From positions 54,229 through 118,228 of IMG/VR virus record IMGVR_UViG_3300044675_001548: a stretch of 64,000 nucleotides of DNA. One strand, given 5' to 3'. The notes under the pieces are model-generated. The model worked only from the letters and a program-made list of their open reading frames with translations, had not been told where the DNA came from and ran no database searches. Made by a program: the position numbers and the translations under genes. The stretch comes from a virus. Of the stretch, positions 31,663 to 64,000 are shown one piece after another; within the stretch, counting starts at the first letter, position 1, and every line of letters begins with the position of its first letter.

Positions 31663-31671
31663 ATCAATTAA

Positions 31672-43161: not shown

Positions 43162-46100
43162 TACTCACAAATATTTTGGTTAAATAATCTTTCTTCTAAG
43201 TCTTCAATACTCATTGAATCTGCCTCAGCTTCAATAGCATCTAATCTATTAAAGTCTTTTACAAACTCATCAATATTTGCTTTGGACTTAGCAACTATAT
43301 CTTGTTCTTTTTTAGTTAAAGGTTTTTCAGTTGTAGCTTTCATGTCTTCTAGACTATCTTTTAAAGTTGTTAATGCATTTACTTGTGCAAATGTAAGGTT
43401 TTCTGTTTTCTTACCTCTAGCTTTTCTAACAGTAACTCCTGTATCACTTACATCAGTTATCACTAAAGTATTTCCATAAATGGCCCACTTAGCCCCTCTT
43501 ATAAATATAGGTGTTTTTACAATAAGTTTGTCATTTTCTTTAAGATTTTCTTTATTTAATTTCAGAACTCCTTCAGATAATGAGTCAAGTTTCTCTTGTA
43601 ACTGGTTAGATAATTCAACAACTTCTGCCGCACTCAGTTTCTTAACAGCTTTATTTAAACTAGCTTGTGCTGCTTTAATAGAATCTTTAGATTTGGCAAG
43701 TCTGATCTTCATTGCAAGTTGTGCAGCCATATCAGGATCTCCTTTTCCAACACCAATAGGTTTTTCTTCAAGAGTTTCTTGAGCTTTAACTGCAGGTGAC
43801 GGAGCATCATCAGCATCTTGTCTTGGAATGCTTTCTAGATTAGCGGCCTCAGCAGATTCTTTAGACTCAACAGCCACACCTTTTCTAGGTATAATAGAGT
43901 CAATTTCTTTCTGGTAAATGCTTTTATCTAATGGTATCTCATATGAACCTGGTAATAATCCTGAAGCAACTTTTGGAGACTGTGCACTTAGTACTTTACC
44001 TGTCTCATCATCTTTAGTTATTTCAATTGGGAATATACCTATAGAGGCATTAAGACCTGTCATATTGAATAACAAGTTAGCATAGGCTGTTTGCTGTAAG
44101 ATATAGTCTTTTTGTTTTTGGTAGCCAAATTTCTTTTTGTCCTGGAAGTTATTCCATTTACTAGCCTCACCTGTTTTAACGTCAACTATCTTAACATTAC
44201 CATCTCTGTCTACTATGATGATATCTATCTCACCGGCTATACCAGCATCCTTGTCAAATACTCTGATGTCTTTGGTATATACAGCAATCTCATTTCTATC
44301 AAACTTAGCTTTAAGATCTGTAACAATACCTTCTGGACCAAACAAATTGTTATATGCTATTCTGGTTATGCTGTTTTCATCATATACAGCTTTACCTATC
44401 TTAGGGTCAAATATGTTTTTGATTTGGTTATCAATGTAGTTACCTGCAATTCTAGAAGCTTCATAAGTCTTCTCTTTGACTATAGCCATAACCTCATTTC
44501 TAATCTCATCTGAAAGACTACTTGTGTCTCCACTTGTTTGAGCTGATGGGTCTTGATACTCTATTGATATAAAACTTGCATCATCATTTTTATGATTTTT
44601 TCTAAAGTCATCAAAATTTAAGCTCTTTCCAAAACCTGCTTTTATAAAGTCTTGTATTGCTTCTTTAGTTTCAATAAAGTCAGATGCTAAAACAAGTCTT
44701 TCACCAGGTTTAAGTTCAACTGTATATTTTGATATCTTTTTAGCAGGCTCAGCACTTGTGTTACCATTAGAATCAACACCCCATGTAAAGCCATCTACAA
44801 AAGGTGAAGTACTCAGACCTTCTGCTTGTCTTATGTTATTATTTTTATCTACTACAAAAAAAACAGCATCACCTACATGTTCAATCTCATATTTATTATT
44901 ACTAACTCTTTGAGCTTTTACACCAACAGCACCAACAGCTCTTGTTAACCAGCTATCTTTATCAGTTATAGATTCTGGATCTTTTAAAATTCTAAGTAGA
45001 CCATTTATAGCAATTATAGTAGGATCCGCAAGACCAGAAAAACTTGTATTATCAAACTTTACAGAATCTGAAATAAAACCATTACTCTGTAATAGTTTAA
45101 ATATTTCTTCTGTAGTAACTTGATTGTTTGCTTTATAAGCATTTGCTATAATATCAAAAGGATTTTTTTCCTTAACACCTCTAAATTGATTTATCATCAA
45201 TCTAGCAGCATCATGTGGCTGAAAGAAAGGTACTTTATTTACTCCACCCATTCCATCAGCAACAATAAATACACCTTTGTTATTATCTACAAAAACTGCA
45301 TCTTGATTCTGTCTAGATGAATCTTTACCCATTTTACCAGCAGCTCCAAAAATAACCCCATCTTCCTCTTTTATTTCAGCTTCGGTTGGCTGGAAAATAG
45401 TTGATGTTTTAGTAGCTTTTGGTTTACCACCTTTTAAAGTAGGTAAGATTTTTTCTAATTCTCTTTTTAGTTCATTGTATGTGTACTCACTAAAGCCACC
45501 AGGTCTTTTAGTTCTTAAGTCTGTAATGAAATCTTCTACAGACTTTCCTTTTACAAGTGTCTGATTTACAGATGCTAGCACTTTAGTTTCATCTGAATAA
45601 GAATACTCAGTTACACCAAGCTCTTCAATAGCTTTAGTAACCCTTCTCATCAATTGATTTTCTACATAGTAGGCTTCATTAATTTTTTCAAGCTTAGACT
45701 GAGCATCAAACACAAGTTGTAGTCTATTGATAGTCTCTTGCATTTTTTCAGATACCTCTTTAGTATCTCTACTCTTAAGGTATCTATCAATCTTTGCTTT
45801 ATCGGCCTTAGCTTCTGCTAGCATTAAGTTCTCATCAGGAGTTCTCTTATCCTTATTCTGCATATTGTTAATCTGCATCATAAGCAACTGTCTGTTCTTT
45901 TTAATTACAGACTCTGGCTGATCAGTTAGATCAACTTCTTTACCTGATAATTTTATAACTAATTTTTCTGGAACTCCTGTGACTTCAGTAGCAGCAGTAA
46001 GTTTAGACTTTTTATTATACTCATCAATAATTCTTCTAGCTACACCACTTGTTCTAGCAAATGCTCTAAGCTCATTAAAGAACTGCTCATCATCAAACTC

Positions 46101-49964: not shown

Positions 49965-49981
49965 AATTAATAATTTTATTC

Positions 49982-52900
49982 TCAGTAACCATCATAATAA
50001 CCATTGAATGCACGGATATTATCTTCTCTATTTGCATTTAAATAGTCTACTCCATTTTTAAGATACAGCTCAAGTTGTCTATCTTTTGGTGAGAAACTAT
50101 CATAAGCTATGTCCTGATATACTTTTTTGTCAATGGGATTATACGTATCTATTGTGGTAGTTGTTATATACTTTGATGTACCAGTGGTACCTTTATCAAT
50201 TCTAAATGTACCACCATCCGGAACTGATTCCTCATAATAACCTCTGTAATCTACAATATTTTCTAGTGGTGTTTTATAAACACTATTCATTAACGGATTA
50301 CCAAAGGCATCTGAAGAGGATATAACAGATAATCCATTTTGTATAATAGCATTATACTCATCATTGGTTAACAAATTATTTGTATTATCCTTATCTGTAG
50401 CTTTAAACTGTTTAAGCCACTCAGCATCAGGCATAATTATCATAGCAGATTTATTATAATCTCCACCTGCCATTGGTAACGCAGCAAGTGTAAATGGTTT
50501 TAAATCATTATCTGGTAATGAAGATTGACTTATAAGAGCCTGAAGAATTGCTTGACCTTTTCTAGTTTGTGCAACTGCTACATCTAGATCTTCCATTGCT
50601 GTTTTTTCTGTTCCAGTTATACCTTCAGTATTACCAAACAAAATAGCATTTTCTTTACCGTCAAATGATGCCATGTTACGGAAATCATTTGTGAACCCAT
50701 GCCATGAATTAAATCCCTTAGTGCCAGGTGCTTGAGGTAATACCTGTATTCCTGTGCCTGTAGCAGCAAATCCTGTCCCCCCTTCATTAAGTACTCTGAA
50801 AGTAGGCATGTCAGCTAAATTATTATTTTTATACCAATCAGAACTTGTTGCATTCTTAAATATTTTATCATATCTGCTTTCAAGTTGTTCCTTTAAAAGA
50901 ACATATGCTTGGTCTTTTGTATCTCCACCTAGACCAGCAATACCTCTCACATATGGGCTATACTTAGCTATTTTTTCTCCAACCCATGTAGTAGGTGCTT
51001 CATTTCGGAATAAACCATTCCAATATTTAAGTGTCTCAGCATCCATACTATTTCTTCCACCTGTAGTATAGAACATAAAAGCATCACCAACAGCCTCAAA
51101 AAAGTTTTTATTTGATTCTGGCTGAATTTGCTCACCATATATAGCTTTAGATGCAACTTGTCTAAGTTCTTCTTTGCTTAGAAGATTGTTATCTTTATCA
51201 AACATCATCTTAGCTATTGGTCCTATTTCAGGATCACTTTCCATAGCTAGCCTAGTTTGATATTTAAAATCTTCTATATCATGATTTACATATGCAGAAA
51301 ACTTTGCTGGACGTAATGTTTCATTAATAAAGTTTGGTGCTGTTTCAGCAATAAAGGGAATATCATAATTGTCCTTTATTGTTTCTTCAAGTTTAGCGGT
51401 GACATAATCATAATAGTTTCTTGTATCAACATATTTTTTACCTGTCTTATCTGTTGCTATAGAATTTCTTCCTACAGGTATAAATGTTTTTTCTAGATTA
51501 TATATATCTTGGGCTGTTAGTTTATCAAGGTTCTCAAGAGTTACTCTTGGTGCTCTTGTTACTCTTTTTTCATCATCAAAATCTACATAATCATCCACTC
51601 TATAATCAGGACTAGTACCATCACTTTCAGTAACACTAGCAAATCTAGATGATGCTTTTCTTGTTGGTTGCCCTGTTTTAGGATTTATTTGGCCAAAATC
51701 TCCTGGATTTAAGATCTCATCAATTTCCTCTTCAGAAAGAGCCTTACTATCAAATGCTTTTTTTAACCATACACTAAATTGACCATTAGTTGCCTGGAAC
51801 TCTTGTGTTTTTCTTTTCTGAGCATTATTTAAAAGATCTGCAGGATTTAATTCATCTGTAGAATTTGTTATTGATTTCCATTCAAATGCCTCATTCTCAT
51901 TTGGTACAATGTCAACTATGGGATTACCATACTGATCAGTTGCCATTTTACCTGTTTTTGGATTTATTCTTGGTTGTGATTTTAAATAACCTTTTTTAAG
52001 ACCTTCAGAAGTTTTTAATGTTTCAAGTTCACCAGCATTTCTTATTCTAGCTGCATCAGTTGCACCTTTTGCTTTTATACTAGCAGCTCTTGTACTGTAT
52101 GAACCTCTAGTATGAATTTGTTGCATAGCTTGAGCATGTTTAACTTCAAGCACTTTGTATGGATTTTCTTTAATACTTGTCTTAGCATCTTTATATGCAA
52201 ATATTTCTGCAGCTTCATTAAGATCTTTAGACATAAGCATGCTTGCCATACCTGCATCAACCTTCCATCTCAGTGAGTTTACATCACCATAAGGATTAAT
52301 AAATCCTGTAGAAGTTGAAGGTGTGCTGGATGAAGTTTGACTAAATTCATTATTTTGTTTCTCAACTCTCTCAAGAATCTTATCATTAATTTCTTTAGCT
52401 TGTTTGTATTCATTTAATAGTTTCTCTGCAGATGGTGCAGCTTTTTTATCAGCAATAGATTTTTCTATTTCCTTTATCTTATCAGCATAGGATGTACTTC
52501 TGTTTTGAACAGCTTTATATCTTTGAGCATTTTGATCTTTGAGTATGTTAAAGCTATCTTCAAGGTATTTCATCTCTGCTGCATTTTGATCTCCATTAAA
52601 CTGTGCTGCATTTGAAGCCGCATAGTCTTTACGGTTTACATAAGCTTGAGTTTTATACACAGCTTGTACTTGTGGATCAGAGCCTAGTCTTGCTTCAAAT
52701 AATTTACTAAGTGGCTCTCTTAATTTTTCACCATTTTTTTGTGTAATAATCCATTTTTCATCCGGACTAAAGTCTACTGACTCAATTGAGAGACCAGCAT
52801 CCTTAGCAATCTTTTGAGCTAACTCAATAGAGTTTACATAAGGTGTATATGCTACATTTTGGAATCCCATTGCAGTACCATCATCAGCTTTTTTAAACTC

Positions 52901-53350
52901 ATCTCTTTTATACTGCATTTCTCTAAGTCCTGTATCCCAGAATTGCTTTCTTCTTTCTGCATCTGCTGAACCTTGTAAGGCTTCGGCTCTTCCTACTTGC
53001 GCATTGTAGGTCTTGGTCCAAGCCATATCTTTCATTAGATTCTTATCTTCATAGAAAGGTTTAAATACTTGTGTAGCCTGGTTTACATTTTGCTCTAAAG
53101 ACAAATCAAGTTGTGATACTCTCTTTAAATTAAACTCCATGTTCTTTAAAAGCTCATCTTTCTTTTTTATATTTCCATCTCTTGTAAGGTCAGCATAAAA
53201 ATACTGTCCATACATTTTATTAAGTGACTTCCAGTTACTGTCATACTGACTTTGTTTAGTCTGTAGAACATTTGCATAGAAATTTAAATCAGGCTGAAAG
53301 GGTTGAAACTCCGGTATATAATCAGTGACTCCCTGTAGATATGTTGCCAT
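49982..53350 (-). CDS. Large putative virion cargo protein
   Basis: 1122-aa ORF with no Cys, in the late arm directly upstream of the ejection-protein genes; no catalytic motif recognised. Confidence 0.6.
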   Translation of the reverse strand: MATYLQGVTDYIPEFQPFQPDLNFYANVLQTKQSQYDSNWKSLNKMYGQYFYADLTRDGNIKKKDELLKNMEFNLKRVSQLDLSLEQNVNQATQVFKPFYEDKNLMKDMAWTKTYNAQVGRAEALQGSADAERRKQFWDTGLREMQYKRDEFKKADDGTAMGFQNVAYTPYVNSIELAQKIAKDAGLSIESVDFSPDEKWIITQKNGEKLREPLSKLFEARLGSDPQVQAVYKTQAYVNRKDYAASNAAQFNGDQNAAEMKYLEDSFNILKDQNAQRYKAVQNRSTSYADKIKEIEKSIADKKAAPSAEKLLNEYKQAKEINDKILERVEKQNNEFSQTSSSTPSTSTGFINPYGDVNSLRWKVDAGMASMLMSKDLNEAAEIFAYKDAKTSIKENPYKVLEVKHAQAMQQIHTRGSYSTRAASIKAKGATDAARIRNAGELETLKTSEGLKKGYLKSQPRINPKTGKMATDQYGNPIVDIVPNENEAFEWKSITNSTDELNPADLLNNAQKRKTQEFQATNGQFSVWLKKAFDSKALSEEEIDEILNPGDFGQINPKTGQPTRKASSRFASVTESDGTSPDYRVDDYVDFDDEKRVTRAPRVTLENLDKLTAQDIYNLEKTFIPVGRNSIATDKTGKKYVDTRNYYDYVTAKLEETIKDNYDIPFIAETAPNFINETLRPAKFSAYVNHDIEDFKYQTRLAMESDPEIGPIAKMMFDKDNNLLSKEELRQVASKAIYGEQIQPESNKNFFEAVGDAFMFYTTGGRNSMDAETLKYWNGLFRNEAPTTWVGEKIAKYSPYVRGIAGLGGDTKDQAYVLLKEQLESRYDKIFKNATSSDWYKNNNLADMPTFRVLNEGGTGFAATGTGIQVLPQAPGTKGFNSWHGFTNDFRNMASFDGKENAILFGNTEGITGTEKTAMEDLDVAVAQTRKGQAILQALISQSSLPDNDLKPFTLAALPMAGGDYNKSAMIIMPDAEWLKQFKATDKDNTNNLLTNDEYNAIIQNGLSVISSSDAFGNPLMNSVYKTPLENIVDYRGYYEESVPDGGTFRIDKGTTGTSKYITTTTIDTYNPIDKKVYQDIAYDSFSPKDRQLELYLKNGVDYLNANREDNIRAFNGYYDGY

Positions 53351-53409: not shown

Positions 53410-55680
53410 TTACATAATAAAAGGGAAGATTGTATCTGCATAGACATAACCTCCATTTTTTAAGTAACCTACATAACCTCCTCTTTGTAAATTATCACTG
53501 CCAGCACCTCTCATACGTGCAGATACCATTCTACCAATTATATCTTTATCAATCCCTGCTGCTTCTAAACTTTGTACATATTTTATATCATCTGCATCTT
53601 TAGTTGGATTAAGAGTTTTTTCTGTTGGTCTATAACTTACAAACCCACCAGTAGAAGGATCAACTTGATAGTTAGGTGTTAATTGGTTCTGCGCATCTGT
53701 TTGTGCTCTGTTAGTAACAGCAGTATTGTACTGTTGTCTAAGATTGTTCATAGCTTGTCTCTTAGAGTTGTCAAACTGTTGATTAGCAATAACATTCTTA
53801 TCATACAAATCATTAGCAATTTGCTGGTTCATCAACTGTTCTTGGTTTCTAATTCCAACTTGTTGACCTTCAAATTGATTTGCTATACCAACATTTTGGT
53901 TGTTTATGTTAGATAGTGTATTTGCTGCTTGTGCTGCAGCTGATCCTTGTATGTTAGCTAGTCTTGCACCCATTTGTTGAGCACTACCTGCAAAGGCATT
54001 AGATGCTTGAGCAGCAATATTAGCTTGTTCAGATTGTGCTGCTAACTCTCTTGTAGGATCTAAGAATGTAGGTCTAGGTTCTTCAAGATCAACTTGAGCG
54101 GCCCACGGCATGTATTTGTTTATACTTGCCATATCACCAAATGCACCCATAGTATTTACAGTATCTTGTAACCACCATGGAGCATAACCATCCTCCATTA
54201 CAGGTTCTTGATAGTATTCATCTTCTACTTCTTCTTCAACTTCCTTTGATGGACAAGGAGGACATGTGCCATCAGCATTCTTAGGCATCGGTTCTGACTT
54301 AGTACCATCTTCATATTCACAAATACATTCCTGCTCATTAACAGGTGTTCCTTCTATCTTTACTATATCAACTTTTTCTTCAATGTTTTGACATGCTTGT
54401 AATTGTTTTCTTATGTCTTCAATTCCTTTATAACCGGCATCAAAGAACTTATTTATTTTACCTGTTTCATCTGGTACACCATTAATAACTTCATCAACTG
54501 TGTAACCTTTAAGATCACCGTTCTTCATTCTACCACACACACCAGACACATATGCAGATAAGTTAAAATTAGCAGTGTTACCTTTACCTGTTGTTGAACT
54601 TTTAATTGCTTTACCACCAGAAACATCACCTGTCCCATAATAACCACCACCTAAATCCTCATATCCTGAGGGTGCTGTTTTTACAGTTTTTACTCCTTCT
54701 TTTGGTATTCTTGTTTTTAATTCATCTTTAGTATATTTTCTACCTGTTGTTTTTACCTCATCACCGGGTCCGTACTTCTTTAATGCACCACCATAAGCCA
54801 TTTGATTAGGGTCACTATAGAATGGCATTCCATAACCACCCATTTCCATACCATAGGCTGCCATAGGATATCCTCCATATTGCATTGGTGGTTGCATCAT
54901 TGCTTGGTCTGGTGCTCCTTGTTCTGGCATTGGTTCACCTTGTGGCATAGCTACGGGAGATCCATCAGGCATAGTTTGAGGAGCTTCATTTTCTTCAGCC
55001 ATCATTTCTTCACCTTCTGCTTCTAATCCAGCTTCTGTAGCCTCTTCTTCCTCTTCTTGAGGTGGTACAAAGTCTGCTTCAGAAAGACCATTAGCTTCCA
55101 TGAATGGTTTAGCTACAGCAGGAACACCTTGAGGGAATCCTTTCTTAGCCTCTTGTGCTAATGCTAATGCTCCTAACTTCATGTTATAATTACGGATCAT
55201 TATCTCTGCAGTCTTTCTATCTATTGCATCTGAGTTGGGGTCCTGTAATATCTCTCTATACTTCTGTATGTCATATTGTTTAGAAAGTTGAGCTGGAGTA
55301 TATGCGGTTTTACCTTTTACAGCTTTACCAAACTTAGCTAGTAATGCTGGGTCCTTTATCTTCATTTCTCTAAAGTCACTGTAGATAAAACTATCATCCG
55401 GCAGATTTAATGGAACACCACCTTGAGCATGTCTTGGTCCTTTAATAGTGTAGAATGCAGGTATATTACCTGTATTCATCATCACTGTTTCATTACCTTC
55501 TGCTTCAAGATTAGCCTCTTCTCTTGGCACCTTCTTGAGTGTTCTATTCATCTTTATATCAGGAATACCAATATATGAATCATAGTCTGCACCACCCATT
55601 GCAGGCACATCATTAGCTAAAGCTCCACGTACTTGATAACCTGTTCTGGCTTTTGGTACTTTTTTAATTCTTACTTTCAT
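53410..55680 (-). CDS. Putative virion cargo protein with GG-motif punctuation
   Basis: EAEGNET...GPRHAQGGVPL...FIYSD segment; MQYGG, MEMGG, MAYGG, LQRGG, LKNGG; Cys cluster. Confidence 0.6.
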   Translation of the reverse strand: MKVRIKKVPKARTGYQVRGALANDVPAMGGADYDSYIGIPDIKMNRTLKKVPREEANLEAEGNETVMMNTGNIPAFYTIKGPRHAQGGVPLNLPDDSFIYSDFREMKIKDPALLAKFGKAVKGKTAYTPAQLSKQYDIQKYREILQDPNSDAIDRKTAEIMIRNYNMKLGALALAQEAKKGFPQGVPAVAKPFMEANGLSEADFVPPQEEEEEATEAGLEAEGEEMMAEENEAPQTMPDGSPVAMPQGEPMPEQGAPDQAMMQPPMQYGGYPMAAYGMEMGGYGMPFYSDPNQMAYGGALKKYGPGDEVKTTGRKYTKDELKTRIPKEGVKTVKTAPSGYEDLGGGYYGTGDVSGGKAIKSSTTGKGNTANFNLSAYVSGVCGRMKNGDLKGYTVDEVINGVPDETGKINKFFDAGYKGIEDIRKQLQACQNIEEKVDIVKIEGTPVNEQECICEYEDGTKSEPMPKNADGTCPPCPSKEVEEEVEDEYYQEPVMEDGYAPWWLQDTVNTMGAFGDMASINKYMPWAAQVDLEEPRPTFLDPTRELAAQSEQANIAAQASNAFAGSAQQMGARLANIQGSAAAQAANTLSNINNQNVGIANQFEGQQVGIRNQEQLMNQQIANDLYDKNVIANQQFDNSKRQAMNNLRQQYNTAVTNRAQTDAQNQLTPNYQVDPSTGGFVSYRPTEKTLNPTKDADDIKYVQSLEAAGIDKDIIGRMVSARMRGAGSDNLQRGGYVGYLKNGGYVYADTIFPFIM

Positions 55681-55685
55681 TATAT

Positions 55686-58600
55686 TTAACTTATAATTTC
55701 TACTTCACCACCATTTGCTAGGAATTCTTCCAGTTCTTCCGGAGTCATATCTACTACATCACCTTCTGCAAAACCACCCTCTTGCATGAAACCACCTAAC
55801 TGTTTAGATCTACTGTTCCATATCTGACCTTGTTCATTAGGTCTGTATAAACCAGTATTAGTATCATAGTCTCCACGGTCTCTACTAGGATCAGAAGCAT
55901 AAAGATTATCTGAAGTAAACTTGTCATAGAAGTCTTTGTTCTGTCTTCTCTGATCTCTTTTCTCAAGCCTATCAAATAAACCTCTGGCAAGAGCATTACC
56001 AGAGTTTAGCATAGCCTGTGCATCAAGTTCATAAGTATCTTTATTTTTAAAGTCTATTGCAAAAGAATCTTCTTCAATTCTTCTTCTAGCTTCATCTGGT
56101 GACATTACAATCTCATTGCCTGATTCATCCATAGTAGATGTACTACCTGCAGGAGCAGCACTAAAGTCATCACCCTCACCATAACCTTCATAGTAATTTA
56201 GTGTAGATTTTAGTTGTTGATTTTCATCTTTTTTAGGTTCACCAAATCCTGGTATAACAAGTTTACCAGCATCATCATAACGGAGAAAAGGGTTCACTGG
56301 GTTATTTGTATTTGATACAGGGCTTTCTGTTCCTGTTGAAGTCCTAGTAACTTCATCACCATAAACAAACTTGCTTAGTGCACCACCATATTGTTTACCT
56401 ATAATACCACGCATCCAATCAGGTACAAATTCCATTGCAGAATCTTGCTTTTGTTTTTTACTTCTAGGTTTTGCAATCTGATCTATTTTTCCTTGCATTG
56501 TATTATAGAACTTATCATAACCTTCTACTTTTAGATAGTTATCAAAGTCACCATAATTTTTTCTCTGTGCTGGTGACATGTTTTGCCACCTTGTATCAAT
56601 AGCATATAGTGTTTTTTGTCCAGCAGGAGAATCTTTTAATGTTTCAAGTTGATTTTTGTTTTTGTTTATTACACCTTTAATATCCCAGTCATCAGTCCAG
56701 TTACCAGCCTGATTACCTTGTCTATCAGAATTAAATGCTTGTTCTTTAAGTGCACCAGCATCTCTAGATTGTTTAGATCCTTGACTTCCAGAACCAGATG
56801 AGGCTTGTTGTTGCTGTTGTCTTATAGCAGCTTGCTGTTGATCATATTGTTGTTTAGCAGCAATCTCTCTATTTCTTACAGAACCTTCACTCATACCATC
56901 CATAGTTCCCGGAAGATATTGCTCATCATTAGATGCAAATCCTTCAAAGGCATCTGTATATTGTGGAAAACTATTTAGAAGCATATCTTCATAATTAGCT
57001 CCTTCTAATTGGCTTGCTGGTAGTGTTGGTGCATTGATATTATCAGTATAAGCTAACTTATAAAGATCTTCACTAGGTTTTCTAGTATTTGGAATTGCTT
57101 GATCTCTATTGCTGAATATATTTGATTCAGTTAATCTAGCACTACGTGGTTGAAAGTCAACAGGTTCAGATCTTCTATTTTTCTCATAGTAATCCATAGC
57201 TGCTTTTTCTCTGTCAGATAATTGGTAATCTTCTCCAGTTGCAATTTCAGGAGTTGCACCAAAGTTAGGATTTGCTGCAGGAGCACCAGAACTTCCCATA
57301 AACATAGGGTTTCTTTGCATTGATTGTTGATTCATGATCTCTTCTTCAGCATCAGCTGTTAAGTTATCTCTTTCAACTGCAGCTGCATCTTTTCCTACAA
57401 CTTCATTTCTTTGACGTATTAGTTCTTCAAGCTTGCTGTCTATCTGACCTTTTGTAGGGTTTTGTTTTAATAGTTCATTGAACTCAGCATCAGCTCCTTC
57501 ACCAAGTACCTCTGTAATATCACTCATAACATCACCCCATTCTCCTTGAACATAGTTATTTGCAGAATCAGGGGAATCATAAGTTGTAGTAGATTCTTCA
57601 AAGTCTGAAGGTCCTTCTTCATTTCCACCACCCATACCAATACCAAATGGATCATCCTGTACTCCTTCAACTTCAGAGAAGTTTCTTATAACACCTTTGT
57701 TAGCTTCAGTAGCCGCATCTCTTGCAGCAATTTCTTCAGCAGAAGGTCCATAAGCAGTTTCTTCAGTTTCAGCTTCAGGATCAGGTAATGAGTCAACCCA
57801 TTCTTGACTCTTCATATTTCTTTTCTCTTGTCTTTTTTCTTTTGCACTCATTTTATCCCATTCTGCATCTGAATATCCAAAGAAGTCTTTTGGATCTTTT
57901 GCTGATTTATTTGCAGTTGCTCCTGAAGCAGAATCTGAATAATCAGCTGATGATGCTGAAGAAGGTTGACTACCAGGTTTAGCACCGCTTGTCTCTTCTA
58001 AGAATTTAGCAAGCTTAGGATCTACATTGTAGTTACTAAAGTGCATAGTATATTTCTTAGGTCTACCGGATAACCAGCCTGATTTTCTTACATCAATTTT
58101 TGTAAGATTAGTGTTGGGTCCAAAACCTCCAGCAAAAGCTCCACCAGTTCTTGGATCATAAGGCATACCTTGTTGTTGAGACCATGTACCCACTCTTCTT
58201 ACAGTGTTAGCTGGGAAGTATCTACCAAAAGCATTTGGTCTATAACCACCTCTTACATATCCACCATAAGGATCATATCCTCCACCACCACCTGAAGACT
58301 GATTTTCTTTTGTATAATCATCTTGCCATTTCTTTTTTTCATCAGCTAGTCTCTTATCATAATCTTCTTTAGATGTAATAGCTTGGAACTCTGGTTTTTT
58401 AGCCTCTTCTTTTTTCTCTTCTTTTTTCTCTTCAACTATTCTTTTAGTTTGTAAATTATCAGGAACACCATCACCATCTTTGTCCCAGTCCTTTACTTCT
58501 CCCTTTTTTTCATATTTTACTAAACCACCTTTAGCAAAGAATGGACTACCTGTATTTCTAGAGTCTGTATAGTCTAGGTCTTGTTGTGTGGTAACATCAT

Positions 58601-60473
58601 CTCCACCATATACAAACTTGTATAGGTCTGGATTTGAGCTGTCTACAAAACCACCACTCTCAAAACCACCAGGTAAAACTCTTTTTAAATCCCATAATGA
58701 TTTAACAGACTGACCAACATTTTTTAACATGTCAAGCTTCCCTTGTTGTTCATTTAAATATCTATCTACAATTGTGTTACTTGCAGGAGCTGGATTGGAT
58801 TTTGAATTATTTTTGATACTATTTTTTAACCATTCTGGTACAGGATCATATGTTGATGCTTTTGCCGGGGCTTTACCTGATTCAGTTAAGTGTGCAAAGC
58901 CTTTAGATTTAGCTGTAACAGCAGCTTTACCTTTATTAGTTTGTGCAGATGAAGCTGCAGGTTTGCTTTGACCAGCTTGTTTTGATTTGGTAGCTGTTGT
59001 TGTTTTTGCTGTTGCTGTTTTAGTGGGTACTTTAGCTCCAGTACCTACTGCATCTTTATTAGGGTTGTTATTTACTGCTGGAAGATTTGTTTTAACTTCA
59101 GTTACATCCAACATGTTGTTTGCATTTCTGTCATATGCAGAAGCTGTACCAGGAGTTGATGGTATTATATTACTTTGAACATTATCAGGAACACCATTAC
59201 CGTCCTTATCATACTCAGGATTGTTATTTAAAACTGTAGTATTATTTTTACCAGGATCAGCAGCTTTGTTTACTAACTTGGATACACCTTCTATAGTTTT
59301 TCTTTGTTTAGATTTAGTACCATAACCAGCACCAGGCATCATTCCAAATCCAGGTATAGCAAAGTCACCGCCAAACTCAATAGAATATTGTGATGGTCTT
59401 CCTGTAAGCCAGTTAGATTTTCTAACATCCAACTTCATACCCGGCATAGTTCCTTGTACATGTATAGGTTTTTGCTCAGGCATCATTTGAGGATATGTCA
59501 TGATATTCATTCCCATAGGAAAGAATCCACCCTGTGGAACCATGCCTGCAAATGATTGCATTTGGTTTCTACCAAAACCTCTTGGCATCATTCTACGCAT
59601 TTGTCTTACTGACATACCACGTTGAGCCATTGGTACTTGTTCCATAGGAGGTTGCATAGGAACTTGTTGCTGCATCATAGCTTGTTGCTGTTGTTCCCAC
59701 ATAGCTTCAGCTTTCTCTTTCATTTTAGCTTCTTGAGCTGAACTTGCTAGTGCTGCAACAAACTCATCTTTCTTATTTTTCTTTTTATTATCCATGGTGT
59801 CCATAGGATCAAAACCAGCAGAAGGCTTTTCTTCTTCACCTCCAGCTTGTTTCTTAAGTAATTTCATTACTTGACCTATGTACTTTCTTTTTGTAATACC
59901 ACCTTGTTTATAAAAATTTTGTTTGTCTTGATTGTATTCATAAGGATCATATCCAGTAAAGCTTACTGCATTGTCTTCAGGAATTATATCACCACCTTGT
60001 TGCATGTAGGCTTCTTCAGGTATGTCATCATCATCATCTTCATCTTCTTCATATTCACCATCAGCAGCTGTATCATCATAGTAACCATAGTCATCAGCTA
60101 GACCAGCTTGTCTTTCTTCTTCAGCTTCTTGCTCTTGACGTTCTAATTCTGCTAAGCCTTCATCATATACATCAGTCTCTTCTTCTTCTTGAACTGGTTC
60201 TTGACTTTCAAAATTAGCAGCAATGTTTTCTACCATTTGCTCAGCTTGATCCATAGGAATTTTAGCAGCCACTAACTCACCTATGAGTGAGTCTTTTGTC
60301 ATCTCCATATCAAGCTCATCAGTGTTTGCAAGGGTTTTGTAAACATAATCAGTTATTTGTGATTGCTGATCTTGTTGCCCACCTTCCTGTGCTTTCCGTA
60401 AAAACTTTGCGGTTTTGTTTACAAATTTTCCTTTACCATCTGGAGCTTTGTAAATTCTTACTTTTTTCTTCAT
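55686..60473 (-). CDS. Low-complexity modular putative virion protein with GG-motif punctuation
   Basis: About 11 xxxGG motifs, an internally duplicated module, DxDGxG Ca-binding-like loops, Q/E/D-rich linkers. Confidence 0.6.
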   Translation of the reverse strand: MKKKVRIYKAPDGKGKFVNKTAKFLRKAQEGGQQDQQSQITDYVYKTLANTDELDMEMTKDSLIGELVAAKIPMDQAEQMVENIAANFESQEPVQEEEETDVYDEGLAELERQEQEAEEERQAGLADDYGYYDDTAADGEYEEDEDDDDDIPEEAYMQQGGDIIPEDNAVSFTGYDPYEYNQDKQNFYKQGGITKRKYIGQVMKLLKKQAGGEEEKPSAGFDPMDTMDNKKKNKKDEFVAALASSAQEAKMKEKAEAMWEQQQQAMMQQQVPMQPPMEQVPMAQRGMSVRQMRRMMPRGFGRNQMQSFAGMVPQGGFFPMGMNIMTYPQMMPEQKPIHVQGTMPGMKLDVRKSNWLTGRPSQYSIEFGGDFAIPGFGMMPGAGYGTKSKQRKTIEGVSKLVNKAADPGKNNTTVLNNNPEYDKDGNGVPDNVQSNIIPSTPGTASAYDRNANNMLDVTEVKTNLPAVNNNPNKDAVGTGAKVPTKTATAKTTTATKSKQAGQSKPAASSAQTNKGKAAVTAKSKGFAHLTESGKAPAKASTYDPVPEWLKNSIKNNSKSNPAPASNTIVDRYLNEQQGKLDMLKNVGQSVKSLWDLKRVLPGGFESGGFVDSSNPDLYKFVYGGDDVTTQQDLDYTDSRNTGSPFFAKGGLVKYEKKGEVKDWDKDGDGVPDNLQTKRIVEEKKEEKKEEAKKPEFQAITSKEDYDKRLADEKKKWQDDYTKENQSSGGGGGYDPYGGYVRGGYRPNAFGRYFPANTVRRVGTWSQQQGMPYDPRTGGAFAGGFGPNTNLTKIDVRKSGWLSGRPKKYTMHFSNYNVDPKLAKFLEETSGAKPGSQPSSASSADYSDSASGATANKSAKDPKDFFGYSDAEWDKMSAKEKRQEKRNMKSQEWVDSLPDPEAETEETAYGPSAEEIAARDAATEANKGVIRNFSEVEGVQDDPFGIGMGGGNEEGPSDFEESTTTYDSPDSANNYVQGEWGDVMSDITEVLGEGADAEFNELLKQNPTKGQIDSKLEELIRQRNEVVGKDAAAVERDNLTADAEEEIMNQQSMQRNPMFMGSSGAPAANPNFGATPEIATGEDYQLSDREKAAMDYYEKNRRSEPVDFQPRSARLTESNIFSNRDQAIPNTRKPSEDLYKLAYTDNINAPTLPASQLEGANYEDMLLNSFPQYTDAFEGFASNDEQYLPGTMDGMSEGSVRNREIAAKQQYDQQQAAIRQQQQQASSGSGSQGSKQSRDAGALKEQAFNSDRQGNQAGNWTDDWDIKGVINKNKNQLETLKDSPAGQKTLYAIDTRWQNMSPAQRKNYGDFDNYLKVEGYDKFYNTMQGKIDQIAKPRSKKQKQDSAMEFVPDWMRGIIGKQYGGALSKFVYGDEVTRTSTGTESPVSNTNNPVNPFLRYDDAGKLVIPGFGEPKKDENQQLKSTLNYYEGYGEGDDFSAAPAGSTSTMDESGNEIVMSPDEARRRIEEDSFAIDFKNKDTYELDAQAMLNSGNALARGLFDRLEKRDQRRQNKDFYDKFTSDNLYASDPSRDRGDYDTNTGLYRPNEQGQIWNSRSKQLGGFMQEGGFAEGDVVDMTPEELEEFLANGGEVEIIS

Positions 60474-60497
60474 ATATTAAATATAATAAATTCTAAC

Positions 60498-60524
60498 TAA
60501 ACTACTAAACTTATTAAGTTTAAT
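60498..60524 (-). promoter_or_regulatory. Candidate late-gene regulatory motif, copy B (contains inverted repeat TAAACTT-N3-AAGTTTA)
   Basis: On the - strand ATTAAACTTAATAAGTTTAGTAGTTTA; similar to 53368-53396. Confidence 0.4.
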
Positions 60525-63318
60525 CTAGCTCTTCTACTATGTAACCTCTCTTTATATAATCTTGAATTTCCTTGTTTGACATGGTAGTTACAATACCACC
60601 TTTTTGTTGAGTTGGTAATTCACTGTTTGCATTTTTTAAGTGCCTTCTTATATGTTTTGGTTTTAAATAGTTAAACCCTTTAAAACCTTTTGTGTTAATT
60701 GGAACAAGGTCAGCTCTCTTTGTTGGTAGACCTGACATTGAATTAATTAATCTTATAACACTAAAGGCTGTTCCTGCATCAACACCATCTTTTGAGACAT
60801 CATCATAGATCTCTTGACTACGTGCTATTACATTCAATGGGGTTGTAAGATTATATGCATGATTTGCTGGTGATAGTACACCTGTTAAATCAACTACTGC
60901 ATCAGTCATGTTTGTTAAACCTTCTCTAAATTCTTCTCTGCTTCCATTTGAAAGACCTTCTTGTAATTCACCGGTACCTTTATAAACATTTTCACCAGCT
61001 TTTGTAAGAGTATATCCTCTTAATACATTCTTAACTGTAGGTTGTGCCCAGTCTGGCATATTTTCCATTACTTGACCTGCTTTATTAAGAAGTTGAGTTC
61101 CTTGAGCAGAATCTGTTATATAGTCAATACCTTTTGCATAAGGTGTTGCAGCAGCTTTAACAAGATTTGCTTTAAGTGCAGGGTCTGTAAATTTAGCAAA
61201 ACCTTTAACAGCACTTTTGTATTTATCTTTAAATGGTTTAATATAGGTTTTTGCAAAGTTAAATCCCTCTTTAGTTTTCAACCAGTCTCTAGCAGCCTTC
61301 ATAGTTTTTAGTCCAGGATAAGCAATGATTGCAAGATTAGCTAATTCATCAAGACCTTGACCATACTTTTCTCCAAATCTATTTAATTCACCTTCACGGC
61401 CTGTTGCCAAGTCATAACCTTCCACAAGTGTTGTTCCAACACCCTCTATTGTATCCATAGGATGTCTTGCAACCTCTTGTAAAGCATATGCTGTACTTGC
61501 ACCTTGCACATATGGATTTCCAAGAACAGCTTGAGCTGCTGGACCTACTGCACCTGCGGCTCCTACAAGTGGGATTGCAGTTGCTACTTTACTTACCATA
61601 TCAACAAACTGTGGCACATCTTTCATTGCAGCAGCTTCAGCTTCTTTAGCTGAGTAAACTGCATTAGAACCTTTACCTTGCTTTACATTAGGATCAACAG
61701 CATCTAGTCCATATCCTTTATATAAAGCTGCTACTTGATCACCAGATAAATTAGAATTTCTTATAGCATCCAAGATCTTCATTTTACCTTTTGTGGTATT
61801 AAGATCTTTTAGTTTAAGATTCTGTATGTCTTTGTTGTCTTTTAAGGCAGCTTTGCTTTTAAGATTCTCAAGTCTCTTAAGTTCAGCCTGTGTATCTTCT
61901 TGTTCTTTTCTTAATTCATCTTTGTAAAGTTGTATACCTTTTCTAAGATCTTCAATACTAGAAGAAGCATCAGCTATGTTTAATCTAAACTTTTTACCTT
62001 TGTTTTTTTCTGTAAAGTTTTGATATGCTTGTTTTGCATCTGATAACTGTCTAATAAGACTTGCTTGTACTTTTTTAGACTTGCCATCATATACTGTAGT
62101 TTCTGGTAAGTCTTGTACACCAGGTTTTGTATCACCACCATTATCAAATCTGTTTAATGAAGGTACAGAAATATCTTCTACAACATAACCACCATTAACA
62201 TACTGAGCTATCTCATCATCATCAAGTTCAAGATCTACATACCCACCGTCTTCAAAACCATATTTTATACCTGCTGTTACTCTTGGATTAAAATAACTAC
62301 CAGGCATCATAGTGTTTTGTATACCGGCATTTGCTACAAAGTTTTTACCTAGCTTTTTTTCATAACCAAGTTCCAGATTTGCACTTGGATTAAATAACTT
62401 TCCTGGTTCTGAATAATTACTTAATGTAGCATCACCATATATGTTTCTGTATTTTTTTCTTATACCTATGTCTTGAGTTGATCTAGGTGCAGTGTTTCTA
62501 TTCATGAATGGAACTTCTGCATTTATGTTACCGTGTAATCCAGATTTATGTGACATATCTACATTAGCACCAATAATCTGAGAACCTGGTCTGTTTGAAT
62601 TTGTATACAACCTAGGCTTTATGTTAAAGTTAGGAGGACCACCCTCTTGATAATACTTGGCATTAGGATCAAATACTTTATTCTTTTTAGACTTGGGTTT
62701 TTTAAACAATCTGTTTTCTGTAAACAATCTGTTTGTTGCATCAAGACTTCTTGAATACTTCTTAGAAGCTAAACCTTTCTTACTTGGCTTAGGCATTGGT
62801 ATAAGACCTCTTGTATAACCTCCTCTTTTCATTTGTGGATTATCATCTACACTTTGAACATTCCAATTATCATCAAAGTAAATCATGGAACCATGTTTGG
62901 TTTTTACAGTTTTTGCATTTAATTCTTTTGCTTGTGCTTTCATAGATTCCCAATTAGGAATCCAAAAACCTTCTTCATTATATGAACCAGCATCTTCAAT
63001 AACTGGAATATCACTTCTTGTTCCACCACCCTTACGCATGAAGTCTTCAGGTTGTTCTAACTCTGGCTGCATTCTGTAATTAGTAGTTAGCTCTTCCCCA
63101 GGTTTAAGATCTCTTTTGGCATACACATATCTTTTGTCACCAACCTTAACACTGTACATAGTTGGTTCATCAGAATGATTATGCATTTTACCTAGTGTAC
63201 CTACAGGCTGACCTTGTCTATGAGCAAGACCTATTCTTTCACCTTGCTTAATTGGGTTCTTTGCAAATAAACCTTTATCTGCATTTGGGATTTTAGATTT
63301 AGATACTTTATACTTCAT
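60520..63318 (-). CDS. Modular putative virion polyprotein with N-terminal SET domain
   Basis: SKIPNADKGLFA...NHSDEP...RDLKPGEELTTNY; modules separated by MRKGG, MKRGG, YQEGG, FEDGG, YVNGG, FDNGG, QQKGG. Confidence 0.7.
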   Translation of the reverse strand: MKYKVSKSKIPNADKGLFAKNPIKQGERIGLAHRQGQPVGTLGKMHNHSDEPTMYSVKVGDKRYVYAKRDLKPGEELTTNYRMQPELEQPEDFMRKGGGTRSDIPVIEDAGSYNEEGFWIPNWESMKAQAKELNAKTVKTKHGSMIYFDDNWNVQSVDDNPQMKRGGYTRGLIPMPKPSKKGLASKKYSRSLDATNRLFTENRLFKKPKSKKNKVFDPNAKYYQEGGPPNFNIKPRLYTNSNRPGSQIIGANVDMSHKSGLHGNINAEVPFMNRNTAPRSTQDIGIRKKYRNIYGDATLSNYSEPGKLFNPSANLELGYEKKLGKNFVANAGIQNTMMPGSYFNPRVTAGIKYGFEDGGYVDLELDDDEIAQYVNGGYVVEDISVPSLNRFDNGGDTKPGVQDLPETTVYDGKSKKVQASLIRQLSDAKQAYQNFTEKNKGKKFRLNIADASSSIEDLRKGIQLYKDELRKEQEDTQAELKRLENLKSKAALKDNKDIQNLKLKDLNTTKGKMKILDAIRNSNLSGDQVAALYKGYGLDAVDPNVKQGKGSNAVYSAKEAEAAAMKDVPQFVDMVSKVATAIPLVGAAGAVGPAAQAVLGNPYVQGASTAYALQEVARHPMDTIEGVGTTLVEGYDLATGREGELNRFGEKYGQGLDELANLAIIAYPGLKTMKAARDWLKTKEGFNFAKTYIKPFKDKYKSAVKGFAKFTDPALKANLVKAAATPYAKGIDYITDSAQGTQLLNKAGQVMENMPDWAQPTVKNVLRGYTLTKAGENVYKGTGELQEGLSNGSREEFREGLTNMTDAVVDLTGVLSPANHAYNLTTPLNVIARSQEIYDDVSKDGVDAGTAFSVIRLINSMSGLPTKRADLVPINTKGFKGFNYLKPKHIRRHLKNANSELPTQQKGGIVTTMSNKEIQDYIKRGYIVEELD

Positions 63319-63998
63319 TACCTTAAGGATACTTGGTTTTTAATATTGGATATTTTGAATATCATGTTTACATCACCTGATACCATTCTTGACAAACTTA
63401 AGAAATTTAAATAATGTCTAAACTTCTTTCTTTGCAAAAGTGGTTTTACATAATCTAAGTTAGCTTGATTAAGGAGTCTCTTGTAACCGCTAGGTCCTGT
63501 CTCCCATATCTGTCTCTCATCATAGTTACCTAATAGTTGTGTAGTTCCTGGAATAAGTGGTCCTTGTGGAGGATAACTTGATCCTATCGGAAACTCAGCT
63601 CTATCTTTTGTTATATCCCAGAATTGGTTTAGTCTGTATTTGTTTTCTTCTTTAGAGAATAAGATATCATATCCTGGAACTGGTAAGTATGTTGGGTCTA
63701 CAGATAAAGATGGATTAGGTCTTGGGTATTGTAAACTTAAAGCTACATTATTCTTAGGGAATATATTTAGGTTTAAGTATCCGGAAACTTGCTCTGAGTT
63801 ATATACCAAGGCTCTGTCAAAATTAAAGTCAAGAACATGATACTGGTCAAAGCAATTGTACTCAGATCTTTTATAACACTCTAATATATACTCTACAGAT
63901 TTAATTGTAGTTACTGTTTGTCCTGTTGATACAGGTATCTCTATTTCAAATGGGTAATCTACACCATAGAAGTTACAGTAAGTTCCACATGTTCCACC
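63318..63998 (-). CDS. 3' part of a putative tail stabilization-type structural protein (5' end outside window)
   Basis: The frame stays open past the track's TTG start (63809) to the window edge: ...CNFYGVDYPFEIEIP...VYNSEQVSGYLNL...KKFRHY; resembles crAss-like tail proteins from memory. Confidence 0.5.
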   Translation of the reverse strand, partial: GGTCGTYCNFYGVDYPFEIEIPVSTGQTVTTIKSVEYILECYKRSEYNCFDQYHVLDFNFDRALVYNSEQVSGYLNLNIFPKNNVALSLQYPRPNPSLSVDPTYLPVPGYDILFSKEENKYRLNQFWDITKDRAEFPIGSSYPPQGPLIPGTTQLLGNYDERQIWETGPSGYKRLLNQANLDYVKPLLQRKKFRHYLNFLSLSRMVSGDVNMIFKISNIKNQVSLR

Positions 63999-64000
63999 TG

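Follow-up and report, generated by a model that had tools for sequence, protein, structure and literature searches.

A junction motif ending in Gly-Gly, with basic leaders and acidic tags, in the probable cargo proteins of a crAss-like phage

Introduction

The final 64 kb of one 118,228-bp viral contig (IMG/VR record IMGVR_UViG_3300044675_001548, positions 54,229 to 118,228; this whole stretch of 64,000 nucleotides is called the window) carries three adjacent genes whose products of 932, 1595 and 756 residues (p932, p1595 and p756) are punctuated by short motifs ending in Gly-Gly (GG). Are these motifs sites at which the proteins are cut, or do they join and mark the parts of chains that stay whole? 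An initial annotation of the window had listed 23 such pentapeptides (7, 11 and 5 in the three proteins), read them as maturation sites that release a variable set of small injected effectors, and named repeated capsid-binding tags as the alternative. All 23 are present, the coordinates given for the three minus-strand open reading frames (ORFs) are exact, and the element YGGAL[SK]K[FY]xxGDEV does recur in two proteins (p1595 residues 1362–1375, p756 residues 296–309). Here we report that [F/Y/M]-[Q/K/A]-x-G-G is a junction and terminal signal of the probable cargo (ejection) proteins of a crAss-like phage and its relatives, and we weigh whether it is cut. Coordinates are those of the window unless marked "genome". 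The three genes are:

60520..63318, minus strand: p932, first cargo slot (ORF, position after the muzzle gene, BLAST mosaic, AlphaFold)
55686..60473, minus strand: p1595, second cargo slot (ORF, motif map, BLAST segments)
53410..55680, minus strand: p756, third cargo slot, the conserved member of the array (65 relatives, alignment, AlphaFold)

Results

Definition and distribution of the motif

Glycine pairs by themselves are an uneven signal. Plain GG is not enriched in p932 (8 seen, 7.6 expected), is enriched in p1595 (24 against 13; shuffle p=0.0025) and is weakly enriched in p756 (11 against 7.2). Enrichment over other ORFs, a check suggested by the initial annotation, is clear once the preceding residue is included: [FYM]..GG occurs 4.9 times per 1000 residues in p932, p1595 and p756 taken together but 0.9 times in all remaining ORFs of the genome, and exceeds composition-preserving shuffles at p ≤0.002 in two proteins and at 0.058 in p756. 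A variant with a hydrophobic residue on each side of GG gives p ≤0.02 in all three. The signal is [F/Y/M]-[Q/K/A]-x-G-G, not GG as such. In its strict form, [FYM][QKA].GG, it has 19 copies in the genome, and 18 of them fall in seven virion-module proteins, namely p932, p1595, p756 and four small proteins of the head module:

genome 17268-18248, 18261-18785, 19640-20803 and 32922-33176, outside the window: four very basic proteins (K+R 20–26%, 3–13 GG pairs each)

The same distribution holds across a family set of 65 related IMG/VR contigs, in which genes were classified by BLAST. Motif density per 1000 residues is 3.07 in the homologues of p756 and 4.64 in the proteins whose genes lie between theirs and the muzzle gene, compared with 1.09 in the muzzle and 0.26–0.27 in homologues of the next two cargo proteins. 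These slots thus carry the motif at 10–18 times the density of the neighbouring giant proteins. A logo of 1,358 distinct GG contexts shows Y/M/F at −3 and Q/K/A at −2; position −1 is weakly biased, and the residues behind GG carry little information. At the residue that follows GG, Pro is found at 0.52 times background and aromatics and Met are enriched 2–3 fold.

Two kinds of GG can be told apart. Those that form turns inside folds lack the hydrophobic-Q/K prefix, as do G87-G88 and G678-G679 within the folds of p756, each conserved in 49 of 52 relatives; prefixed motifs lie in flexible segments.

Could Gly-rich, low-complexity proteins simply produce such pentapeptides, with no specific signal? 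The three proteins contain 9–10% Gly against 5–6% in their neighbours, and the GG count of p932 equals expectation. The explanation is nevertheless excluded by the shuffles ([FYM]..GG, above), the informative positions before GG, the conservation of motif positions, and the existence of a C-terminal tag that is a profile-detectable domain with 1,241 cluster matches (below); we give it next to no weight.

Two further candidates were rejected. The motif is not a target of the SET enzyme that p932 is predicted to carry, as Lys is not required at −1 or −2, and SET occurs in few relatives whereas the motif is family-wide. A helix C-cap (Schellman) interpretation of Phi-x-x-G-G-Phi would account for some sites but fails in the Pro-rich surroundings found in the basic proteins, and so is not general.

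Genome and gene order

The source genome is a crAss-like phage: Pfam families crAss_MUZ, CrAss_Ring_1, CrAss_Ring_2 and Crass_capsid, and PHROGs for portal and large terminase, all have matches in it. On the minus strand, head genes, ring genes and the muzzle gene are followed by genes for proteins of 932, 1595, 756, 1122, 2267, 3829 and 1943 aa. The order from the muzzle onward is kept in relatives and is that of Bacteroides phage crAss001, where cargo proteins C1 and C2 and polymerase-associated giants, which are stored in the head and tail and ejected, are encoded beyond the muzzle gene (PMC10172136). With this order, the genes for p932, p1595 and p756 come right after the muzzle gene and precede those of the giant RNA-polymerase-associated proteins, and the three proteins therefore occupy the cargo (ejection) slot, in agreement with the initial description of modular late proteins. 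They are most likely packed into the particle and injected.

The muzzle gene is complete at genome 549-6200, where Pfam crAss_MUZ matches the full copy, and its 3′ end, to which crAss_MUZ also has a match, is present a second time:

63318..64000, minus strand: 3′ end of a muzzle gene copy (duplicated 3′ end; the contig ends overlap)

The overlap spans 985 bp at 94% identity (window 63016-64000 against genome 247-1231), which suggests that the assembly closes imperfectly on two strain variants. As a consequence the first cargo gene is present in two versions at the contig ends, one of 183 aa (SET, linker, YQDGG, tag) and one of 932 aa. They part directly after YQ[DE]GG, and the closest relative has the 183-aa form.

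A tblastn search of the three proteins against 50,697 phage records returned no match, and the muzzle protein alone led to distant cultured relatives. Motif and tags are found in Cellulophaga phage phi17:2 gp41 and in XAI97386, XAI97385 and XAI97384 of Leptolyngbya phage Lbo-JY46. The phage studied here is uncultured; the phi17:2 counterpart gp41 is annotated "virion structural protein" by similarity to phi4:1. In the first cargo slot of these phages, XAI97386 (L079 24578-26065) has a lytic-transglycosylase-like C-terminus (...ESGGNYRAVN...GKYQF...), and phi17:2 gp42 (L078 26329-28548) has a lysozyme-like N-terminus and two HExxH motifs. Cell-wall enzymes in place of SET indicate that the first-slot payload is variable.

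Basic leaders and acidic C-terminal tags

Comparison of the termini of all family proteins revealed that the motif also marks protein ends. Proteins of the second and third slots begin with a basic leader, whose common form in relatives is M-K-K-V-R-I-K-S-L-P-K-A-Q-x-G-G. An acidic tag of ~30 residues forms the C-terminus of those in the first and second slots; it reads motif-GG, a short strand, a [ST]xxE[IL]xx[FY] helix, G[G/Y], and a final strand with xVE-hydrophobic. The motif thus closes the basic N-leader and opens the acidic C-tag. Leaders carry an average net charge of +5.0 and tags one of −6.6, and the commonest layout, in 12 of 32 arrays, is "tag / leader+tag / leader".

The tag is specific to these slots. 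In the family set, matches to a tag hidden Markov model (HMM) are limited to proteins encoded between the muzzle and the 756-aa homologue (113 matches, 79 of them C-terminal); in this genome they fall in p932 (residues 353–383 and 904–931), p1595 (1564–1594) and the 183-aa variant. A 59-row alignment has the leading GG in at least 90% of rows and an invariant G27, while the inner GG alternates with GY. Run against 1.84 billion cluster representatives, the tag profile matched 1,241 at E≤0.001 and 228 at E≤1e-10, and 122 of the 149 top-scoring proteins with tag matches have a C-terminal copy. Internal tags are typically followed within ~6 residues by another joint (DNYQDGG, SVPSLxQAQxGG or PKAQxG). 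In fused proteins an internal tag is followed by ...PSLxxAQxGG, which is a leader end without the basic strand.

The capsid-binding tags that the initial annotation offered as its second option come close to the look of this conserved leader and tag, judged by their sequences, although what they might bind is a separate matter taken up below. An association between the flavour of a tag and that of the next leader, judged by eye, is confounded by conserved gene order and has exceptions; we do not claim it. Full-text literature searches returned no published description of motif, leader or tag.

Architecture of the three proteins

All three proteins are strings of folded modules with flexible stretches in between, and every such stretch bears the motif. 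The first-slot protein p932 is a mosaic that runs, in order, through a SET domain, a small domain, a basic linker, a beta-rich module, an internal C-tag, a unique part of 500 aa and a terminal C-tag:

63043..63318, minus strand: predicted SET-domain lysine methyltransferase module, residues 1–92 (Pfam PF00856, E 9.4e-09, above the curated cut-off)
62839..63021, minus strand: alpha/beta module of ~60 aa, residues 100–160, flanked by MRKGG and MKRGG (62818-62832)
62257..62637, minus strand: beta-rich module by sequence pattern, residues 228–354, between YQEGG (62638-62652) and FEDGG
62134..62256, minus strand: internal acidic C-tag FEDGG-YVDLELDDDEIAQYVNGGYVVEDIS, residues 355–383 (tag HMM 21.5 bits), then the junction SVPSLNRFDNGG (384–395)
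60523..60609, minus strand: terminal C-tag QQKGG-IVTTMSNKEIQDYIKRGYIVEELD (tag HMM 34.3 bits; aligned with 57 relatives)

An AlphaFold model of residues 1–460, built on a 72-row alignment, has the SET fold at residues 1–88 with a predicted local distance difference test score (pLDDT) of 92–97. Foldseek matches it to vSET, PRDM and MLL at E of about 1e-5 to 1e-6 (vSET 3kma: E 5e-06, template-modelling score 0.62 on the target). By predicted fold and sequence motifs, then, the first module is a predicted SET methyltransferase. MRKGG (63025-63039) follows it immediately. The 100–160 module, with pLDDT 86–96, has no Pfam match. The internal tag is also well modelled (pLDDT 80–91, confident at 361–385), and MRKGG, MKRGG and FDNGG sit in pLDDT dips at 97–99, 165–175 and 393–412.

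The stretch of low confidence at 223–360 is opened by YQEGG and closed by FEDGG. It holds the beta-rich module, in which hydrophobic residues alternate up to an end that reads ...AGIKYGF, and which is absent from the 183-aa variant; BLAST segments of many relatives stop at residue 227. With pLDDT below 50, residues 228–354 have no confident fold, and no Pfam match was found. The initial placement of motifs at module borders therefore stands for the SET domain and for both flanks of 228–354, but the "beta-strand module" itself is not confidently folded. Residues 228–354 resemble a small outer-membrane beta-barrel with a C-terminal signature, a likeness that, if true, would be of interest for an ejected protein that crosses the outer membrane.

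At the position of the internal tag, a relative's stand-alone ORF stops with ...DISVPSLNQ*, and the p932 layout of tag plus SVPSLxxAQxGG is also present in database proteins. Residues ~500–880 (window 60610-62133) have no counterpart in 65 related loci. They include a hydrophobic Gly/Ala-rich segment (...ATAIPLVGAAGAVGPAAQAVLG...), like the predicted membrane segment of crAss001 gp45.

The second-slot protein p1595 has a basic N-leader, acidic and Q/M/P/G-rich low-complexity stretches with GG motifs, two DVRKSxWLxGRP modules and a C-tag:

60378..60473, minus strand: basic N-leader MKKKVRIYKA...FLRKAQEGG, residues 1–32, with the motif at its end (conserved N-termini of second-slot relatives)
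58515..58688, minus strand: four-motif cluster LPGG, FESGG, FVYGG, FAKGG, residues 596–653 (conserved block of ~50 aa)
56349..56390, minus strand: YGGALSKFVYGDEV, residues 1362–1375, the element common to p756
55689..55808, minus strand: C-tag region KQLGG-FMQEGG-FAEGDVVDMTPEELEEFLANGGEVEIIS, residues 1556–1595 (tag HMM 46.4 bits)

Some relatives shorten the second-slot leader to MKKRVRIYKAQEGG. Relatives' BLAST segments begin at p1595 residues 596–607, at the four-motif cluster, and many others begin at 1355–1363, at the element common to p756. The two modules are copies of [LI]DVRKSxWLxGRPxxYx[IM]xF at residues ~349 and ~794 (window 59367-59456 and 58029-58121), and many relatives have them too.

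The third-slot protein p756 is the probable counterpart of crAss001 cargo protein C1 (gp45), with motif-level likeness to gp45, phi17:2 gp41 and XAI97384. Its AlphaFold model was built from a 52-row alignment:

55591..55680, minus strand: basic N-leader MKVRIKKVPKARTGYQVRGALANDVPAMGG, residues 1–30, predicted disordered (GG29-30 in 32 of 52 relatives)
55081..55548, minus strand: folded N-domain, residues 45–200 (pLDDT 75–91; H84 and G87-G88 nearly invariant)
54745..55056, minus strand: disordered acidic M/Q/P-rich linker, residues 209–312 (pLDDT <50), with MQYGG, MEMGG and MAYGG-ALKKYGPGDEV
53611..54183, minus strand: long-helix Q/N-rich C-domain, residues 500–690, with a GG hairpin (678–679) at its end (AlphaFold)

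The leader, which reads MKVRIKKVPKARTG...PAMGG, lies in a disordered stretch (residues 1–40) that contains PAMGG. HAQGG in the N-domain is a nearly invariant turn within the fold, and the last two GGs of the protein are in a disordered tail. In the linker, GG281 is retained in 42 of 52 relatives and GG297 in 36 of 52, despite drifting flanks.

Whole-model Foldseek and VIA searches of p756 gave generic helical matches only, as the helical domain dominates. Pfam and PHROG searches of the three proteins and ten sub-regions recognized SET only; a Nif11 match at p756 421–451 was sub-threshold (E 0.003–0.008). The small injected effectors foreseen by the initial annotation are thus weakly supported, with SET as the single recognizable enzyme module.

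Module swapping at the joints

A comparison of relatives for module swapping, suggested by the initial annotation, supports the exchange, fusion and separation of modules at motif joints, on the evidence of both BLAST segments and free-standing ORFs. Parts of p932 (residues 1–101 with SET, 94–227, 157–227, 355–399 and 902–930) are shared in varied combinations and positions. BLAST segment ends fall within 6 residues of a GG in 15 of 22 cases in p932, against 2.2 by chance, and segment starts lie near GG in 20 of 46 cases in p1595, against 6.4 by chance; in neither protein are these ends independent, and conserved islands draw them.

The basic head-module proteins show the same behavior. Their GGs often read MQKGG or YQKGG; one of them carries DUF6321, and a neighbouring ORF carries DUF5872. 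In relatives, their modules are separate small ORFs that end at motifs. The DUF6321 protein of this genome has an 85-aa extension, then MQKGG and SSPAWTR...; orthologues in two relatives begin directly with M-AK[TS]PAW..., and a third has a 23-aa leader, MKSGG and STPAWTR. Likewise, three relatives have, as an ORF of its own (61–74 aa), the part of the 387-aa basic protein that lies between AQNGG and LPKAQKG. In these ORFs the internal YKTGG reads YTTGK, which suggests that the second Gly is kept only where a joint exists. A pattern scan for homologues of the 387-aa protein found none; they were found only by searching five related records.

Is the motif, then, mainly an evolutionary scar or recombination linker, its internal copies being former termini with no role of their own in the mature protein? 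In favour of this, genes fuse and split at the joints, internal tags are followed by the leader-like ...AQxGG, and the 183-aa and 932-aa variants on this very contig diverge right after YQ[DE]GG. Three observations speak against it. The codons of the motif are ordinary (12 of 19 GG pairs are GGT-GGT, and GGT makes up 59% genome-wide), so the constraint acts on the peptide and not on DNA homology. Linker motifs of the p756 family hold their positions while their flanks drift (above). A scar would decay, yet the elevated density persists across the family. We consider this explanation unlikely. GGAGG as an internal Shine-Dalgarno sequence or as recombination homology was rejected on the same codon usage.

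Protease search and published crAss001 data

We scanned with Pfam 102 ORFs of 75–1200 aa, the muzzle protein, the three giants and the four large cargo proteins. This search for an adenain-like protease, which a very divergent enzyme could escape, gave no match to Peptidase_C5, C48, C57 or C63. Among head-module ORFs, Pfam and PHROG gave no prohead protease (S77, S78, U9/U35, S49, ClpP), and no ORF matched Peptidase_C39 or another dedicated protease at that sensitivity. The initial annotation had seen no dedicated protease beyond zincins, and this holds: what the genome offers is HExxH motifs in two of the giant cargo proteins downstream.

25831..53350, minus strand: downstream cargo genes without the motif, for proteins of 1122, 2267, 3829 and 1943 aa (ORFs, motif scan)

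The 3829-aa protein (window 31672-43161) has HExxH at residue 878 and the RNA-polymerase motif DFDVD at 2487; phi14:2 has a zincin-bearing protein and a separate virion RNA polymerase, and the 3829-aa protein looks like the two fused. The 1943-aa protein (window 25831-31662) has HExxH at residue 189 and a LysM domain at 1628–1670. Neither HExxH region matched a Pfam peptidase family, the MPTase family included, and the motif is absent from the giant cargo proteins. Zincin domains have been speculated to process crAss-like virion polyproteins; the same phi14:2 preprint suggests that the domain might process the polymerase polyprotein or digest the cell wall (bioRxiv 10.1101/2020.03.07.982082).

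The three giants also have cysteines at their extreme termini: ...NQNICE* (window 43167-43169), MAITC... (43147-43149), ...NNCTNPFLGE* (31696-31698) and MARSAC... (~31645-31647). Terminal cysteines recur in cultured relatives, in phi17:2 gp39 (...GFMC) and gp38 (MASC...KCN) and in Lbo-JY46 XAI97382 (...VNC). Their placement would fit a head-to-tail link in gene order.

The protease scan also surfaced, in the non-structural part of the genome, a DUF2201 metallopeptidase-VWA protein and a ClpS adaptor homologue (Pfam 4e-14, one ORF within genome 35.3-58.0 kb). ClpS reads N-terminal F/Y/W/L, and would become relevant should cleavage behind GG leave the Tyr or Phe common at that position as new N-termini. 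The head module also encodes, at genome 15213-15725, a Dps/ferritin-like protein (DUF5856; PHROG "starvation-inducible regulator").

For crAss001 itself, virion data exist. We re-analysed the matrix-assisted laser desorption/ionization peak lists of the published virion gel (PMC6235969, supplement 14), bands 1–10, against shuffled decoys. Peptide-mass fingerprinting of bands 1–9 identifies gp44, gp47, gp49, gp50, portal and tail fibres. Two proteins share band 3 (gp47 and gp50) and two others band 4 (gp49 and gp44), each with peptides from every quarter and scores far above the decoys. The crAss001 giants gp47, gp49 and gp50 thus migrate as whole chains and are not processed. The muzzle protein gp44 (156 kDa) is the fingerprint match of bands 1 and 2, which lie above the 270-kDa band, so part of it runs as a multimer resistant to sodium dodecyl sulfate even on a reducing gel.

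In the crAss001 structure, the gp45 GGs at 427, 434 and 447 lie inside a segment (425–552) modelled as one portal-bound domain (PMC10172136). The other resolved segment, 214–245, begins four residues after SAYGG; both segments start at, or four residues after, xA[FY]GG. Of the initial annotation's reading, the motif as a mark of module joints is supported; against cleavage, the adenain site register is absent, no suitable protease was found in the scans above and the crAss001 giants are full length.

Comparison with known systems

The closest known object is gp45 (C1) of crAss001, whose gene likewise lies just after the muzzle (PMC10172136). It has a basic N-terminus ending ...FDTGG (MAKKKIKRRGKMPPNIFDTGG), 12.6% Gly, 21 GGs of which many read xA[FY]GG, a hydrophobic Gly/Ala segment and a Q/N-rich helical C-part. 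Short ordered segments of gp45 dock on portal and tail barrel, with unresolved chain between them, and the paper treats it as one intact chain; its main text has no words beginning "cleav", "proteoly" or "protease" (PMC10172136). The likeness does not extend to significant sequence similarity: hhalign of a 52-sequence p756 profile against gp45 gave a probability of 0.1% and E 0.59, pairing p756 97–135 with gp45 480–510. The gp45 stretch lies in the portal-bound domain, and the aligned ...[FY][IV]FSD... is suggestive only, as the match is weak. No match to p756 was found among Protein Data Bank sequences. This lineage differs from gp45 in that the strict [FYM][QK]xGG and the C-tag are much clearer and the array consists of three proteins with swappable middles.

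Cleavage after GG is established in eukaryotic viruses of another capsid lineage. Adenain, acting on adenovirus pVII, pX, pVI, pIIIa and pTP, and African swine fever virus (ASFV) pS273R, acting on pp220 and pp62, are clan-CE cysteine proteases that cut (M/I/L)-X-G-G|X. There, as here, internal or core proteins, some of them very basic, are punctuated by a short GG-ending motif. In the logo of the present family, however, the hydrophobic residue is at P5 and Q/K/A at P4, where adenain and pS273R sites have the hydrophobic residue at P4; no clan-CE protease is detectable in this genome, and a cut after GG here, which would likewise yield small basic peptides, is hypothetical.

Phage systems offer a second comparison. 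In T4, gp21 cuts at L/I-x-E|, and in phiKZ, gp175 cuts at S/A/G-x-E|; a prohead protease encoded in the head module trims capsid protein and scaffold. The T4 capsid-targeting sequences and the phiKZ inner-body proteins share with our array the use of short terminal signals that load varied internal or ejected proteins, with a motif at the joint. They differ in that no such protease gene was found here by Pfam or PHROG and that the capsid and scaffold candidates lack the motif.

Double-glycine leaders, processed by C39 peptidase-ATP-binding cassette exporters or found with Nif11/NHLP, have hydrophobic residues at −4, −7 and −12 and Glu at −8. Such systems also have an N-terminal leader that ends in GG before the functional part; the basic leaders here (MKKKVRIYKA...) are off this canonical pattern, and the Pfam scan of the genome found no C39 domain. 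All three, the adenain/ASFV, T4/phiKZ and double-glycine systems, are functional analogies, as their defining site register and protease are absent from our data.

The nearest concept for the whole array is that of polyvalent proteins, multi-domain mosaics delivered with the DNA and proposed to be self-processed by zincin-like peptidase domains (PMC5512222). The words "linker", "glycine" and "crAss" are absent from the main text of that paper, where "cleavage" appears three times, never for joints between domains. Our array differs in that only SET is recognizable as an enzyme and the MPTase family of polyvalent proteins is not detected by Pfam.

Discussion

What does the motif do in the virion? 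We tentatively prefer, with confidence just short of even, a reading in which it forms uncut joints and in which leaders and tags load or order the cargo, slightly ahead of one in which it is a protease site. The joints would stay uncut in the virion, and the GG pair would act as a flexible hinge, so that a string of modules could be stored and then threaded, partly unfolded, through portal and tail. Leader and tag would be the loading or ordering handles. One option is that they dock on virion parts, as gp45 segments do on portal and tail barrel. Another is that each protein's acidic tag would bind, head to tail, the basic leader of the protein encoded next (n with n+1), in which case the cargo would leave in gene order. 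Such pairing would fit the layout "tag / leader+tag / leader", the opposite charges, and the loss of the leader's basic strand in fused proteins, which is expected if a covalent link replaces the pairing. That the motif is specific to the cargo class and, in the predicted models, located in pLDDT minima and disordered linkers is consistent with uncut joints. The full-size crAss001 giants, the similar build of gp45 with three GGs inside one modelled segment, the lack of a suitable protease in the scans above and the change of YKTGG to YTTGK in free-standing ORFs also count in favour.

Several points weigh against this preference. A plain hinge leaves the fixed −3 and −2 residues unexplained, and for tag-leader pairing the conserved gene order is a confounder. 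None of the crAss001 GGs shown to be uncut matches the strict motif, and gp45 never rose above shuffled decoys in gel bands 1–10. To our knowledge, wherever a short motif recurs at the joints of internal virion proteins (T4, phiKZ, adenovirus, ASFV, poxviruses), a protease cuts there. Nearly all the information lies upstream of GG with a relaxed primed side, as at sites cut after GG; the depletion of Pro and the excess of aromatics and Met in the next position would suit the S1′ pocket of a zincin. The basic head-module proteins of 326 and 387 aa contain 11–13 GG pairs, many of them motif-like, and resemble precursors of small peptides. Finally, stand-alone orthologues start no more than two residues after the GG of fused forms (MQKGG|SSPAWTR against M-AKTPAWTR).

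The one-sided information, the residues after GG, the basic head-module proteins and the stand-alone orthologues also favour the competing view that a virion-associated protease cuts after GG, or just before the hydrophobic residue, to strip leaders and tags, free effectors and chop the basic head proteins into small DNA-condensing peptides. Leaders and tags would then be loading signals like the T4 capsid-targeting sequences, and the enzyme could be an HExxH domain of the giant cargo proteins, an unrecognized phage protease or a host enzyme acting after injection. Further in its favour, the sites are found where linkers are disordered, where each leader ends and where each tag begins; the signal is confined to internal virion proteins (18 of 19 copies); the module bounded by AQNGG| and LPKAQKG is another that stands free; the 3829-aa and 1943-aa proteins do carry HExxH; and processing by zincins has been speculated before (bioRxiv 10.1101/2020.03.07.982082; PMC5512222). 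Cleavage also fits the basic head proteins better than uncut joints do.

On the other side, no ORF matches clan-CE, C39, S49, ClpP, S77 or S78, and the HExxH regions lack a Pfam peptidase family. The giants, which are the supposed polyproteins, lack the motif, and those of crAss001 are uncut; the three gp45 GGs noted above lie in a continuous modelled domain. The hydrophobic residue occupies P5, whereas adenain and LXGG sites have it at P4; some sites have Pro directly after GG (YQEGG|PP in p932); several GGs are turns inside folds; and the inner GG of the tag can be GY. On this balance we hold cleavage to be quite possible and only slightly less probable than uncut joints, and would sooner bet against it than for it. 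Its most specific form is a so far unseen protease, probably a metalloprotease among the cargo, that is specific for the motif; the system would then be a phage parallel, of independent origin and with another site register, to the core maturation of adenovirus and ASFV. This form is possible but somewhat doubtful.

Crassviruses and their environmental relatives are among the most abundant phages, and the crAss001 structure raises the question of how they load megadaltons of protein into the head and tail and then eject it in a set order. Were the joints uncut, as we tentatively prefer, they would amount to rules of docking or chaining by which proteins are ejected in order; a motif that is cut would belong to a new phage maturation protease system. 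Either way, the motif marks the sites of natural module swaps in injected proteins. The three-part peptide code of junction motif, basic leader and acidic C-tag is family-wide and provides experimental handles on loading: the tags can be used to recognize cargo genes in uncultured phages, and they can be mutated or transplanted to test how cargo is loaded.

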